Below the pieces are notes generated by a model. The model saw only the letters and a program-made list of their open reading frames with translations. It was not told where the DNA came from and searched no databases. 64,000 nucleotides of DNA from Escherichia coli (lineage in GTDB: Bacteria; Pseudomonadota; Gammaproteobacteria; Enterobacterales; Enterobacteriaceae), in the NCBI RefSeq assembly GCF_046105845.1, contig NZ_CP151004.1. One strand, written 5' to 3'. The position numbers and the translations under genes are program-made. Shown piece after piece: positions 7,343 to 35,936 of this stretch. Position 1 is the stretch's first letter. Each line of letters starts with the position of its first letter.

Positions 7343-7873
7343 ATGGCTATCACTGGCATCTTTTTCGGCAGCGACACCGGTAATACCGAAAATATCGCAA
7401 AAATGATTCAAAAACAGCTTGGTAAAGACGTTGCCGATGTCCATGACATTGCAAAAAGCAGCAAAGAAGATCTGGAAGCTTATGACATTCTGCTGCTGGG
7501 CATCCCAACCTGGTATTACGGCGAAGCGCAGTGTGACTGGGATGACTTCTTCCCGACTCTCGAAGAGATTGATTTCAATGGCAAACTGGTTGCGCTGTTT
7601 GGTTGTGGTGACCAGGAAGATTACGCTGAATACTTCTGCGACGCATTGGGCACCATCCGCGACATCATTGAACCGCGCGGTGCAACCATTGTTGGTCACT
7701 GGCCAACTGCGGGCTATCATTTCGAAGCATCAAAAGGTCTGGCAGATGACGACCACTTTGTCGGTCTGGCTATCGACGAAGACCGTCAGCCGGAACTGAC
7801 CGCTGAACGTGTAGAAAAATGGGTTAAACAGATTTCTGAAGAGTTGCATCTCGACGAAATTCTCAATGCCTGA
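7343..7873 (+). CDS. fldA: Flavodoxin 1 (176 aa)
   Basis: ORF 7226..7873; internal ATG at 7343 gives [27 protein letters not shown]..., flavodoxin FMN-binding signature. Confidence 0.95.
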
Positions 7874-8078
7874 TGTGATGCGGCGTAGACTCATGTCTAC
7901 GCCGTATTAATAGATAATGCCAATCAAAATAATTGCTACAAATTTGTAACTTTTGCTGTTGTACCTGTACAATGTCCCGGTGTTCAAGTGGCCTTGCCGT
8001 TGTAAATGTAAGCAGTGCCACGTTTTTATTAACAATATTTGCCAGGGACTTGTGGTTTTCATTTAGGCGTGGCAATTC

Positions 8079-8097
8079 TATAATGATACGCATTATC
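8079..8097 (+). promoter_or_regulatory. Fur box (autoregulatory operator) overlapping the uof start
   Basis: tATAATGATAcGCATTATC, near match to 19-bp Fur consensus GATAATGATAATCATTATC. Confidence 0.7.
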
Positions 8098-8169
8098 TCA
8101 AGAGCAAATTCTGTCACTTCTCCTAATGAAGTGAACCGCTTAGTAACAGGACAGATTCCGCATGACTGA
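8083..8169 (+). CDS. uof: uof leader peptide upstream of fur (28 aa), translationally coupled
   Basis: MIRIISRANSVTSPNEVNRLVTGQIPHD; stop TGA 8167-8169 overlaps fur ATG at 8162. Confidence 0.8.
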   Translation: MIRIISRANSVTSPNEVNRLVTGQIPHD

Positions 8170-8608
8170 TAACAATACCGCCCTAAAGAAAGCTGGCCTG
8201 AAAGTAACACTTCCTCGCTTGAAAATCCTGGAAGTTCTTCAGGAGCCGGACAACCATCACGTCAGTGCGGAAGATTTATACAAACGTCTGATCGATATGG
8301 GTGAAGAAATTGGTCTGGCTACGGTATATCGCGTACTGAACCAGTTTGACGACGCTGGTATCGTCACCCGCCACAATTTTGAAGGCGGTAAATCCGTATT
8401 TGAACTGACACAGCAACATCACCACGATCACCTGATCTGCCTCGACTGCGGCAAGGTTATCGAATTTAGTGATGATTCCATCGAAGCGCGTCAGCGTGAA
8501 ATTGCCGCAAAACATGGCATTCGCCTGACTAACCACAGTCTCTATCTTTACGGTCACTGTGCCGAAGGCGATTGCCGCGAAGATGAGCACGCGCACGAAG
8601 GCAAATAA
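8162..8608 (+). CDS. fur: Ferric uptake regulator Fur (148 aa)
   Basis: ORF MTDNNTALKKAGLKVTLPRLKILEVLQEPDNHHVSAEDLYKRL... with HHHDH and CxxC metal sites. Confidence 0.97.
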   Translation: MTDNNTALKKAGLKVTLPRLKILEVLQEPDNHHVSAEDLYKRLIDMGEEIGLATVYRVLNQFDDAGIVTRHNFEGGKSVFELTQQHHHDHLICLDCGKVIEFSDDSIEARQREIAAKHGIRLTNHSLYLYGHCAEGDCREDEHAHEGK

Positions 8609-8623
8609 GCCAGCCGGAACGAG

Positions 8624-8651
8624 AAAAGCCAACCTGCGGGTTGGCTTTTTT
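8624..8651. terminator. Rho-independent terminator between convergent fur and chiQ
   Basis: aaaaGCCAACCtgcGGGTTGGCtttttt. Confidence 0.6.
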
Positions 8652-8691
8652 ATACACGGGAAATAAGAAAAGCGAGAGTTACAGCTCTCAC

Positions 8692-9018
8692 TTATTTGTT
8701 ATTACTGCGAATTTCCTGCCAGACCTTATCACAGTCGGCTTTTACCGCCTGATCATTTCCGGTTTGCGTTGCGCGCAGACACTGCTGATAATCCAGTACG
8801 CGTACACTTTCCTGATCGGCAAACTGCTGATGTTGTTTCTCTTTCTTCAGCACGTTTAACACGCTCTGGCAGGCTTCAATTTTTTCTGGCGAACCTTGCG
8901 CGGTGTTAATACAGGCGCTGTATGCCTCTTTCAGACGACTGTCTTCCTGTGGCGCGGTTGATTGCGCACAAGCTACCAGCCCCGATGCAATCATGGCGAT
9001 GAGAATCAGTTTTTTCAT
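8692..9018 (-). CDS. chiQ: Lipoprotein ChiQ (YbfN), 108 aa
   Basis: ORF MKKLILIAMIASGLVAC..., lipobox LVAC, downstream of chiP on same strand. Confidence 0.85.
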   Translation of the reverse strand: MKKLILIAMIASGLVACAQSTAPQEDSRLKEAYSACINTAQGSPEKIEACQSVLNVLKKEKQHQQFADQESVRVLDYQQCLRATQTGNDQAVKADCDKVWQEIRSNNK

Positions 9019-10474: not shown

Positions 10475-10801
10475 GGGTTAATCCTCTTTGACGTATAAAT
10501 TGCTGCACCAAAGGTGAACAGCGAAAAAAATAAAAATTAAAAAAGTAGCGTTGAGAAAAGTCTCGCTGACTACAGGAACAGACTATTTTTCGCGACGCGA
10601 ATTATCAATCTCTTTCTGTAACCAGAATGTAAGAACATGAGCAACCGCACATATTTTGATGATTTTTGTTACAAGGCTTAAGTTTGCTGTTGAAAGGCTT
10701 GCAGAAGAATAAAAGCGTGAAATTCCAGCAAGATGAAAGCGGTTACATTTTATTTAATTATGGCTTGTGATTTTAAATTTGTTTTATGGATAAATTGCGA
10801 A

Positions 10802-10826
10802 GCGGAATTAATTCGCGAAGAAAAGC
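10802..10826. promoter_or_regulatory. Candidate NagC operator upstream of chiP
   Basis: gcgGAATTAATTCGCGAAgaaaagc resembles the nagE operator TTAATTCGTATCGCAAATTAA in this window; chiP is reported to be NagC-repressed. Confidence 0.3.
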
Positions 10827-10831
10827 AGAAA

Positions 10832-10860
10832 AAAACGCCGCAGAGCGCGGCGTTTTGGAT
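10832..10860 (-). terminator. Rho-independent terminator downstream of glnS
   Basis: aaaaaaACGCCGCagaGCGCGGCGTttt; on minus strand the stem is followed by a T-run. Confidence 0.6.
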
Positions 10861-10875
10861 TGTTTGCATGTTTCA

Positions 10876-10912
10876 TGCCGGATGCGGCGTAAACGCCTCA
10901 CCCGGCCTGGTA
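10876..10912. repeat. REP element
   Basis: atGCCGGATGCGGCGTAAACGCCTCACCCGGCCTgg, REP-like. Confidence 0.5.
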
Positions 10913-10922
10913 GAACTTAAAA

Positions 10923-23585: not shown

Positions 23586-25010
23586 ATGACCAAAAAACTC
23601 CATATTAAAACCTGGGGCTGTCAGATGAACGAGTACGATTCATCGAAGATGGCCGATCTGCTGGATGCCACCCACGGCTATCAACTGACCGACGTGGCGG
23701 AAGAAGCGGATGTGCTGCTGCTGAACACCTGCTCAATCCGCGAGAAGGCTCAGGAAAAAGTCTTCCATCAGTTGGGTCGCTGGAAACTGTTAAAAGAGAA
23801 GAATCCAGACCTGATTATCGGTGTCGGCGGCTGCGTGGCATCGCAGGAAGGCGAGCACATTCGCCAGCGCGCCCACTATGTCGATATTATTTTTGGGCCG
23901 CAAACGCTGCACCGCCTGCCGGAGATGATCAACTCCGTGCGCGGCGACCGCAGCCCGGTTGTAGATATCAGCTTCCCGGAAATCGAGAAGTTTGACCGTC
24001 TGCCGGAACCGCGCGCCGAAGGGCCGACCGCGTTTGTCTCCATCATGGAAGGCTGCAATAAATATTGCACCTACTGCGTGGTACCTTACACCCGTGGTGA
24101 AGAGGTAAGCCGTCCGTCCGACGATATTCTGTTTGAGATTGCCCAGCTTGCGGCTCAGGGCGTGCGTGAAGTCAACCTGCTCGGTCAGAACGTGAACGCC
24201 TGGCGTGGTGAAAACTACGACGGCACCACCGGAACGTTTGCCGATCTGCTGCGTCTGGTTGCGGCGATCGACGGGATCGATCGTATTCGCTTTACCACCA
24301 GCCATCCGATCGAATTCACCGACGATATCATCGAAGTGTACCGCGACACGCCGGAGCTGGTGAGCTTCCTGCACCTGCCGGTACAGAGCGGTTCCGATCG
24401 CATTCTGAACCTGATGGGCCGTACTCATACGGCGCTGGAGTATAAAGCGATCATCCGTAAACTGCGTGCGGCGCGTCCGGATATTCAGATCAGTTCTGAC
24501 TTCATTGTTGGCTTCCCTGGCGAAACCACCGAAGACTTCGAGAAAACGATGAAGCTGATTGCCGACGTCAATTTCGACATGAGCTACAGCTTTATCTTCT
24601 CTGCACGTCCGGGTACACCAGCCGCCGATATGGTTGATGATGTTCCGGAAGAAGAGAAGAAGCAGCGTCTGTATATTCTGCAAGAACGTATCAATCAGCA
24701 AGCGATGGCATGGAGCCGCCGGATGCTCGGCACCACCCAGCGTATTCTGGTAGAAGGGACTTCGCGTAAGAGCATCATGGAGCTTTCCGGGCGTACCGAA
24801 AATAACCGCGTGGTCAACTTCGAGGGCACACCGGATATGATCGGTAAATTCGTCGATGTAGAAATTACCGACGTCTACCCGAACTCTCTGCGCGGTAAAG
24901 TGGTGCGTACTGAAGATGAAATGGGGCTGCGCGTGGCAGAAACACCAGAATCGGTCATTGCCCGTACCCGCAAAGAAAACGACCTTGGCGTGGGTTATTA
25001 TCAGCCGTAA
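23586..25010 (+). CDS. miaB: tRNA-i6A37 methylthiotransferase MiaB (474 aa)
   Basis: [29 protein letters not shown]..., radical-SAM CxxxCxxC (CNKYCTYC), TRAM domain. Confidence 0.95.
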
Positions 25011-35000: not shown

Positions 35001-35936
35001 ATGGCACTGCCAATTCTGTTAGATTGCGACCCAGGTCATGACGACGCTATCGCAATAGTTCTCGCCCTCGCCTCACCAGAGCTTGATGTCAAAGCAATTA
35101 CGTCTTCCGCCGGAAACCAGACACCAGAAAAAACCTTACGCAATGTTCTGCGTATGCTGACCTTGCTTAATCGCACCGATATTCCGGTAGCAGGCGGCGC
35201 GGTAAAACCGTTAATGCGTGAGTTGATTATCGCGGACAATGTGCACGGCGAAAGCGGTCTCGACGGCCCGGCATTACCGGAACCGACGTTCGCACCGCAA
35301 AACTGTACGGCGGTAGAGCTGATGGCGAAAACACTACGTGAAAGTGCGGAACCTGTCACGATTGTTTCTACCGGACCGCAAACTAACGTTGCCTTGCTGC
35401 TCAATAGCCACCCGGAACTGCATAGCAAAATTGCCCGTATCGTGATTATGGGCGGTGCAATGGGGCTTGGTAACTGGACGCCTGCGGCTGAATTTAATAT
35501 TTACGTTGACCCGGAAGCGGCAGAAATTGTCTTCCAGTCAGGGATCCCGGTGGTGATGGCCGGTCTGGATGTTACTCACAAAGCACAAATTCACGTTGAG
35601 GACACCGAGCGTTTCCGCGCCATTGGCAACCCTGTTTCAACCATTGTTGCCGAACTGCTGGATTTCTTCCTCGAATATCATAAAGACGAAAAATGGGGCT
35701 TTGTCGGCGCACCGCTGCATGACCCATGCACCATCGCCTGGCTGTTAAAACCGGAGTTGTTTACCACTGTTGAGCGCTGGGTTGGCGTGGAAACACAAGG
35801 GAAATATACCCAGGGTATGACGGTTGTTGATTATTATTATCTGACCGGCAATAAACCGAATGCTACTGTAATGGTCGATGTTGATCGTCAGGGCTTTGTT
35901 GATTTACTGGCTGATCGTCTGAAATTTTACGCTTAA
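35001..35936 (+). CDS. rihA: Pyrimidine-specific ribonucleoside hydrolase RihA (311 aa)
   Basis: ORF 34968..35936; ATG 35001 gives [22 protein letters not shown]..., DxDxxxDD nucleoside hydrolase motif. Confidence 0.95.

Follow-up and report, generated by a model that had tools for sequence, protein, structure and literature searches.

The stretch of Escherichia coli chromosomal DNA analysed here (64,000 nt, hereafter the 64-kb window) contains the uof-fur leader with its autoregulatory Fur box. This locus is known and annotated in E. coli and is not novel. The analysis showed that the control region of E. coli fur very probably combines two known layers of regulation, which share the same DNA and act on different RNAs. 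We put the probability of this reading at about 0.88. It appears to be the translation of uof that matters for regulation, and not the peptide. Fur is the master iron regulator of enterobacteria. The Fur level is set by the uof-fur region, and the presence of this region in a window of E. coli DNA adds nothing new. All positions below are those of the window.

Gene Organization and Comparison with E. coli K-12

The flavodoxin gene fldA (7343–7873) is followed in the window by an intergenic region of 288 nt and then by fur (8162–8608, plus strand). The fur gene encodes the ferric uptake regulator of 148 aa. It was identified from its open reading frame (ORF), its RefSeq annotation, and a protein match to NCBIfam NF006999 (309 bits; cutoff 146). 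The leader ORF uof is located at 8083–8169 on the plus strand and comprises 28 sense codons (MIRIISRANSVTSPNEVNRLVTGQIPHD) followed by TGA. RefSeq annotates this ORF, and its peptide matched the NCBIfam equivalog NF011344 "fur leader peptide" with 81.3 bits (cutoff 71), residues 1–28 aligning to profile positions 1–28 of 28. The peptide had no match in Pfam. The uof ATG (8083–8085) lies 79 nt upstream of the fur ATG (8162–8164). The first-pass annotation had described a 28-codon uof ORF with its stop at TGA 8167–8169 and a fur ATG at 8162, and these coordinates are right. It had also placed the uof stop over the fur ATG, which needs correction: the stop begins 3 nt after the ATG (ATG-AC-TGA), and the 8-nt overlap (8162–8169) is between the two ORFs. 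The junction reads CATGACTGA at 8161–8169. Within it, ATGACTGA (8162–8169, plus strand) combines the fur start with a stop codon in each of the other two frames (A-TGA and AC-TGA). The geometry of translational coupling is present, with uof terminating within a few nucleotides of the fur start codon.

The Shine-Dalgarno (SD) region of fur, CAGGAC (8147–8152, plus strand), is weak; it precedes the fur ATG by 9 nt and belongs to the invariant block AACAGGAC. Its anti-SD duplex was −4.0 kcal/mol, and approximately 18% of all ATGs in the window scored equally well. The SD of uof is also weak (−3.6 kcal/mol), and SD strength did not discriminate between the uof and fur starts. Codon 6 of uof, at 8098–8100 on the plus strand, is UCA (Ser; TCA in DNA).

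Two further ORFs at this locus were considered mechanical and rejected. The antisense ORF of 115 aa (7863–8210, minus strand) had no Pfam or NCBIfam family match. The TTG-extended uof frame of 78 aa (7933–8169) had no Pfam match, and its sole family match was to the uof model and involved just the last 28 residues. This extended frame also contains an ATG at 7972, which lies upstream of the transcription start site (TSS) at 7980.

Region 7874–8200 was identical to that of K-12 MG1655 at 325 of 327 nt, and it was present at an identity of at least 95% in 5424 of 5426 complete E. coli genomes. RefSeq/PGAP annotated "uof: fur leader peptide" and fur under every match among the E. coli matches listed. 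The K-12 counterpart is b4637, "RyhB-regulated fur leader peptide", whose ATG is at 710725 in K-12 v3 coordinates. The two loci share the synteny ybfE-fldA-uof-fur-chiQ, the 28 codons, and both promoters. The landmarks, namely the uof ATG, the UCA at codon 6, the ATGACTGA overlap, and the Fur box, are identical to those of K-12. The window differs from K-12 at two positions. The C at 8122 (T in K-12) changes codon 14 of uof to Pro from Ser in K-12, and the second difference, a SNP at 8014, falls within the long leader. An exact copy of the 61-mer of the window was present in 393 of the 5424 complete E. coli genomes, which makes it a minority allele, and another E. coli has Phe at codon 14.

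The proposed comparison with the K-12 fur leader therefore gave the same layout at 325/327 identity. The identification as the known uof-fur leader arrangement was borne out as well, with the RefSeq annotation, the NF011344 match, and the literature on RyhB, MiaB, and uof all in agreement. The Fur box, however, is not a component of the translational arrangement but the predicted operator of a sigma-70 promoter described below. The further statement that the arrangement is "fully preserved" holds for the landmarks and for the near-identity to K-12, but not for the uof peptide, which carries the Ser14Pro change.

The Fur Box on the fur Promoter

The 19-mer TATAATGATACGCATTATC at 8079–8097 (no strand assigned) agreed with 16 of the 19 positions of the Fur consensus GATAATGATAATCATTATC and is the predicted Fur-Fe2+ operator. 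The sequence ATAATGATACGCATTATC (8080–8097) is part of this full 19-mer. The three GATAAT-like hexamers of the box scored 5/6, 4/6, and 6/6, and the 7-1-7 model likewise gave three mismatches. With up to three mismatches allowed, TATAATGATACGCATTATC was the sole match on both strands of the whole 64-kb window. The chance level was taken from 100 dinucleotide-preserving shuffles of the window: 0.02 matches are expected per window, and at least one match occurred in 2 of 100 shuffles. A Fur-like match at 35823–35841 lies within a coding sequence, looks like chance, and was rejected. The near-consensus Fur box reported in the first-pass annotation is thus well founded, and its overlap with the start of uof is real, the ATG at 8083–8085 lying inside 8079–8097.

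The operator overlaps the core promoter of fur. It extends from −13 to +6 relative to the TSS at 8092 and covers both the −10 hexamer TATAAT and the TSS itself, a placement typical of repressor sites. Relative to the upstream TSS at 7980, it is located at +100 to +118. The literature also places the Fur box over the −10 of Pfur-a, and publications describe the repression of fur transcription by Fur itself. No mention of uof or of fur autoregulation was found in a subset of Fur ChIP papers.

The Fur operator of the ryhB promoter, an established Fur target taken from K-12, likewise has three mismatches to the consensus, the same number as the fur box. Fur-repressed promoters such as that of ryhB share with fur a 19-bp operator close to GATAATGATAATCATTATC over the core promoter. 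The fur locus differs from them in that the regulated gene is fur itself (autoregulation). It also differs in that the operator is embedded in a longer transcription unit, approximately 100 nt from its start, and contains a start codon that is used only by the longer mRNA.

Promoters and Transcripts

Upstream of the leader, the intrinsic terminator of fldA is located at 7880–7911 on the plus strand, with the hairpin GCGGCGTAGAC-TCAT-GTCTACGCCG at 7880–7905 followed by a tail. It was recognized from the sequence and from published Term-seq data, in which the 3′ end at K-12 position 710897 corresponds to window position 7911 and the intrinsic terminator score is 19.7. Co-transcription of ybfE-fldA-uof-fur has been reported. 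Read-through of the fldA terminator from the fldA and ybfE promoters gives mRNA with a complete uof.

The promoter scan identified two promoters on the plus strand. Puof (7944–7980, score 9/12) has the −35 TTGTAA at 7944–7949, an 18-nt spacer, the −10 TACAAT at 7968–7973, and a TSS at G 7980. This start corresponds to the TSS at 710051 (K-12 v2) in two published datasets. The transcript from 7980 contains the whole of uof and has a leader of 103 nt before the uof ATG. Pfur (8056–8092, score 10/12) has the −35 TTTTCA at 8056–8061, a 17-nt spacer, the −10 TATAAT at 8079–8084, and a TSS at A 8092. It corresponds to the TSS at 709939 (K-12 v2) in two published datasets, with a 5′UTR of 70 nt to fur. 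The −10 of Pfur is a perfect hexamer whose positions 5 and 6 supply the first two bases (A and T) of the uof start codon. In two papers, Pfur is located within the uof ORF and Puof upstream of it.

The TSS at 8092 coincides with the first base of uof codon 4 and lies 9 nt past the A of the uof ATG. Because this TSS lies 3′ of the uof ATG, the Fur-controlled transcript does not contain the uof start codon. Since the start at 8092 is separate from the start at 7980 and from read-through, the Fur box (transcription) and the uof/RyhB/MiaB control (translation) fall on different transcripts. The two layers of control thus appear to divide between transcript classes. Models with a single species of fur mRNA are incomplete in this respect, as the Fur-controlled transcript lacks the uof start. 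In addition, the uof ATG lies within both the −10 hexamer and the Fur box, so that chromosomal mutations of this start codon also hit the promoter and the operator.

In one dataset, the 5′-end read counts were similar, at 74 for 7980 and 52 for 8092. Other published 5′ ends are located at 8138, 8145, and 8155. An abundant 3′ end at 8163 was also published from Term-seq, with a poor intrinsic-terminator score and no dependence on Rho. An attenuator of the trpL type was considered and rejected, as the ORFs overlap and no terminator-like site is present between 8083 and 8162. In principle, Fur bound at +100 could also impede the long transcription unit.

Proposed Model of fur Regulation

According to Vecerek et al. 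(2007), as described in reviews, the translation of fur is coupled to the translation of uof, and RyhB blocks the initiation of uof translation. RyhB itself is repressed by Fur, as stated in publications. The UCA at codon 6 of uof reportedly needs tRNA-Ser(UGA) methylthiolated by MiaB, an Fe-S enzyme, and its decoding has been described as iron-responsive.

The following model would bring these reports together with the layout of the window. At the DNA level, Fur-Fe2+ bound at 8079–8097 would repress the sigma-70 promoter of its own gene (TSS 8092). The Pfur transcript would begin at codon 4 of uof, with no initiation at the uof ATG. At the RNA level, the mRNAs from TSS 7980 and from fldA/ybfE read-through would carry the whole of uof. 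Ribosomes on these mRNAs would finish the 28 codons of uof at TGA 8167–8169, 3 nt past the fur ATG, and the translation of fur on the long mRNAs would depend on their passage through uof, the translational coupling being taken from the literature. At low iron, Fur would become inactive and RyhB would be made; RyhB would then pair near the uof initiation region and block the translation of uof and hence of fur. Separately, MiaB may fail to methylthiolate tRNA-Ser, and UCA at codon 6 would then be decoded poorly. Derepression of Pfur at low iron would yield an mRNA that is exempt from the control at uof initiation. This counts against the model, as do the weak uof SD and, as described below, the undistinguished energies of RyhB pairing and leader folding and the limited conservation of the ORF.

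Candidate RyhB Pairing and Predicted RNA Structure of the Leader

Two candidate RyhB sites were predicted on the plus strand with the RyhB sequence taken from K-12. Site A (AGGCGTGGCAATTC, 8065–8078), found by local duplex prediction, lies over the weak SD region of uof, 5′ of the ATG. It is predicted to pair with RyhB nt 38–56, including G44/C45. Only the longer transcripts, from TSS 7980 or from fldA read-through, contain site A; the 8092 RNA lacks it. Site B (GAGCAAATTCTGTC, 8102–8115), from duplex prediction, lies in uof codons 7–11 and is predicted to pair with RyhB nt 38–47, again including G44/C45. It is carried by the long and short transcripts alike. Both candidate sites contain GCAA. 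As candidates, site A fits a RyhB block of uof initiation, and site B would fit a lowered level of the short fur mRNA.

The predicted energies did not single out either site. The unrestricted duplex between RyhB and the leader was −52.9 kcal/mol, against −47.2 ± 5.0 kcal/mol for shuffles, and 13% of the shuffles were as good. With the seed only, 33% of the shuffles were as good. Local RyhB hybrids were mid-field relative to all 40-nt windows of the 64 kb, and the energy of site A was no better than background. A published benchmark found that the RyhB-uof pairing model is not predictable in silico. The published pairing model itself is said to overlap the terminator stem of RyhB, which fits the upstream site A.

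Folding of the leader gave z-scores of 0.14 for 8092–8210 and −0.42 for 7980–8210, no better than shuffles. The sole structure from RNAalifold was a weak hairpin around the fur SD, invariant and without covariation, and the only pairing that touches the fur SD is an invariant GGA/UCC of 3 bp. Sequestration of the fur ribosome-binding site by structure was thus not supported by these computations. Rfam had nothing in the leader and gave only sub-threshold matches elsewhere in 7700–8800.

A hairpin in the uof body (8114–8134, plus strand) was predicted in both folds. It has the 7-bp stem TCACTTC/GAAGTGA and the loop TCCTAAT, and its local segment had a z-score of −2.4. The SNP at 8122 is located in the loop. 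Most Enterobacteriaceae have an equivalent hairpin equally far from fur; the stem sequences differ, and four or five stem positions show changes on both sides. The published RNA ends cluster around this hairpin and at the uof/fur overlap.

Conservation of the Leader across Enterobacterales

The leader was compared with the fur loci of 80 other Enterobacterales species (81 sequences). The motif TATAATGA was present in 73 of the 81 sequences, giving 73 leaders, of which 66 were unique. Several blocks were near-invariant across the order: GTTTTCATTT (−35), CTATAATGA, CTATAATGAGACGCATTA (−10 and Fur box), and AACAGGACAGATTCCGCATGACTGA (fur SD, fur start, and stops in both other frames). The hexamers of the upstream promoter and the block 7927–7973 were also near-invariant in the 73 leaders. 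The uof body between the invariant blocks varied in sequence and length.

Translation from the ATG of TATAATGA reached the fur start in 44 of 73 leaders, 37 of them in the E. coli frame (TGA of ACTGA) and 7 in another frame (TGA of ATGA). In 24 of 73 leaders, the ORF ended 18–76 nt before fur. These short ORFs comprise 16 codons in Salmonella enterica subsp. arizonae, 14 in Klebsiella oxytoca and Raoultella, 13 in Atlantibacter, and 4 in Pantoea (MRRK*). The ORF from the same ATG in Salmonella and Klebsiella ends 30–39 nt before fur. In Buttiauxella and relatives (four leaders), the ORF runs in frame into fur. The seven leaders in the other frame belong to species in which indels have shifted the reading frame and the ORF nevertheless closes at ATGA.

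Among the 66 unique leaders, the ATG frame was open in 44 and the +2 frame in 27, a moderate excess among sequences that are not independent. The 79-nt and 82-nt leader classes (Escherichia, Citrobacter, and Enterobacter), which differ by 3-nt indels, had an open frame in 24/24 and 8/8 leaders, respectively. Over uof codons 2–15 of the 79-nt class, the entropies were 0.70, 0.52, and 0.61, with no third-position excess. Codons 16–26 showed an approximately threefold third-position excess over few sites, and the same codons form the ribosome-binding region of fur. The occurrence of UCA at codon 6 was limited to Escherichia, some Citrobacter, and Pseudescherichia, with CCA at this codon in Enterobacter.

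The overlap ATGACTGA was kept in 78 of 81 sequences. Codon 2 of fur (Thr) was ACT in 78/81, compared with 17% ACT at the other Thr codons of fur. This is a weak indication of selection on the uof stop, as the neighbouring synonymous sites are also conserved. Judged from these alignments, the promoters, the operator, and the fur start are strongly constrained throughout, and uof as an ORF is restricted to certain lineages. The lack of a third-position excess in codons 2–15, the three alleles of codon 14 within Escherichia, and the frame-shifted ORFs suggest that uof, if it matters, does so through its translation rather than its peptide. The uof mechanism of E. coli should therefore not be transferred uncritically to Salmonella or Klebsiella, the ORF being lineage-restricted.

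Alternative Explanations

A northern study reported that RyhB lowers the short fur mRNA, whose promoter lies inside uof, and not the uof-fur mRNA. This result does not fit a model based purely on uof initiation. We speculate, tentatively and with less than even confidence, that promoter choice may switch fur between an mRNA without uof (TSS 8092) and an mRNA sensitive to uof, RyhB, and MiaB, that Fur at +100 may be a roadblock, and that the hairpin at 8114–8134, which both mRNAs share, may be the actual structural element. By extension, iron status would set how the fur mRNA is translated as well as its amount, and what the Enterobacteriaceae conserve would be the promoter/hairpin architecture rather than the uof ORF. 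A role of the hairpin in translation, RyhB action, or processing would agree with the abundant RNA ends, 5′ at 8138/8145 and 3′ at 8163. The northern result would also agree with RyhB acting mainly at 8102–8115, a site on both transcripts, and lowering the stability or translation of the fur mRNA directly. The sequence GAGCAA...TGTC at this site can pair with RyhB nt 38–47, including the experimentally critical G44/C45, and the other site, 8065–8078, is missing from the 8092 transcript. We nevertheless regard this as unlikely. The energy of site B was −14.9 kcal/mol and ranked only 6936th of 25,584 background windows, and the site belongs to the least conserved parts of the leader, its GCAA being replaced by GCAT or TCAC in other genera. 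The block of uof initiation by RyhB described in the reviews and the published model overlapping the RyhB terminator stem both point to the upstream site instead.

The uof ATG could also be a by-product of DNA signals, formed by the −10 TATAAT and the G of a Fur half-site, with the frame left open by chance or by lineage history. The effect of uof on Fur levels would then be small, because much of the fur mRNA starts at 8092 or downstream. The motif TATAATGA..ACGCA is kept in 73/81 sequences even where the ORF has only 4 codons (Pantoea) or 13–16 codons (Atlantibacter, Salmonella, and Klebsiella). The variation of the uof body in sequence and length, the lack of codon periodicity in codons 2–15, the weak uof SD, and read counts at the uof-less 5′ ends 8092, 8145, and 8155 that are comparable to or above those at 7980 are all in line with this explanation. 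However, published E. coli experiments, as described in reviews, reportedly showed the coupling and the regulation by RyhB and MiaB through uof. The frame is also kept open through 3-nt indels in all 24 and all 8 leaders of the Escherichia, Citrobacter, and Enterobacter classes, the last 11 uof codons show the approximately threefold third-position excess (few sites), and 78/81 sequences retain a stop in each of the two alternative frames at ATGACTGA. We consider a by-product improbable on balance. A function of the Uof peptide itself as a small protein is far less probable still and hardly to be expected. Uof has its own curated NCBIfam equivalog and a well-conserved C-terminal EVNRLATGQIPHD, but the conserved C-terminal codons coincide with the ribosome-binding region of fur, and the N-terminal half of uof evolves like non-coding DNA. 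Within Escherichia, three alleles (Ser, Pro, and Phe) occur at codon 14; other genera have the ORF in a different frame, in a truncated form, or fused to fur; and Pfam contains no matching family.

Relationship to Other Short Leader ORFs

The control of fur through the translation of uof resembles that of P. aeruginosa PhrS/uof-pqsR and GcvB/thrL, in which the translation of a short upstream ORF is needed for the downstream gene and an sRNA acts at the initiation region of that ORF. In contrast to the repression by RyhB, PhrS has an activating effect on its uof, achieved by opening a structure, and the systems have no sequence relationship. The attenuation leaders of the trpL, hisL, and thrL type likewise have a short ORF in the 5′ leader that responds to tRNA-dependent decoding. 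The uof-fur leader differs from them in that the uof and fur ORFs overlap, no terminator or antiterminator lies between them, and the output is the translation of fur instead of the termination of transcription. The gene miaB, which encodes the enzyme behind the UCA effect, is located 15 kb away in the same window.

Leader ORF in other genera

The leader ORF that begins at the conserved TATAATG stopped 30–76 nt short of fur in the representatives of Salmonella enterica subsp. arizonae, Klebsiella oxytoca, Raoultella, Atlantibacter, and Pantoea (leaders L028, L038, L053, L048, and L070–L072, from loci with fur at position 1201). Its length was 16 codons in S. enterica subsp. arizonae, 14 in K. 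oxytoca and in Raoultella, 13 in Atlantibacter, and 4 in Pantoea. Because the leader ORF ends before fur in these representatives, the overlapping stop/start is not general in the family. The TGA was lost in an Enterobacter asburiae assembly (L046), in which the leader ORF continues 49 codons into fur, out of frame.

A further arrangement was found in Buttiauxella, Dryocola, and related species (L057, L058, L060, and L063), where the ATG of TATAATG shares the reading frame of fur without an intervening stop codon. Upstream-initiated transcripts could therefore encode a Fur with an N-terminal extension of 22–23 residues.

Hairpin and codon 14 alleles in uof

A 7-bp hairpin (8114–8134; stem TCACTTC/GAAGTGA, loop TCCTAAT) is located inside the uof body and is common to the long and short fur transcripts. 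Most of the 53 unique Enterobacteriaceae leaders carried an equivalent hairpin at the same spacing to the fur ATG. The stem sequences differed among them, including ACTTCC/GGAAGT, TGCTCC/GGAGCG, and CGCTCA/TGAGCG, and two-sided changes were found at four or five stem positions. The loop contains position 8122, in uof codon 14, which is tri-allelic within Escherichia (Pro, Ser, or Phe). The codon is CCT (Pro) in the window, and the exact 61-mer was present in 393 of 5424 genomes. K-12 and E. albertii carry TCT (Ser) here, and a different E. coli has TTT (Phe).

RNA ends within the leader

Published Term-seq data showed an abundant RNA 3′ end at position 8163 (K-12 v3 coordinate 710645) under two conditions. 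This position is the T of the fur start codon and falls within the uof/fur overlap. In the same data the 3′ end was not Rho-dependent, and its intrinsic-terminator score was poor. The end could mark a short leader RNA, or it could stem from processing or from a protected product of decay.

Published TSS maps place additional 5′ ends in the leader at 8108, 8138, 8145, and 8155 (K-12 v2 coordinates 709923, 709893, 709886, and 709876, respectively), and the read counts of some of them match those of the main starts. These ends may be either true starts or processing sites. The 5′ end at 8155 would leave fur with a UTR of 7 nt that lacks an SD sequence.

Upstream promoter block and second Fur-like site

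The transcription of fur is reportedly acted on by OxyR and CAP. A near-invariant block (7927–7953) lies 5′ of the −35 element of the upstream promoter and overlaps it. The block contains a perfect 12-bp palindrome, TACAAATTTGTA (7937–7948), and appears to be a conserved site for a regulator. Directly 3′ of the fldA terminator is a further Fur-like 19-mer, GATAATGCCAATCAAAATA (7913–7931), which is weaker and matches at 14 of 19 positions. It lies 50–67 nt upstream of the TSS at 7980, and its conservation was moderate.

Other features of the window

The miaB gene (23586–25010) was found in the same window, approximately 15 kb from uof. It encodes an Fe-S tRNA methylthiotransferase, and decoding of the uof UCA codon requires the product of this enzyme. 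The proximity of the two genes reflects an ordinary K-12-like gene order and is probably coincidental. Strain CFSAN018748 was 100% identical to the window across the fur leader. This strain has an IS200C copy between chiP and glnS, which is absent from the corresponding region of the window (10475–10922).
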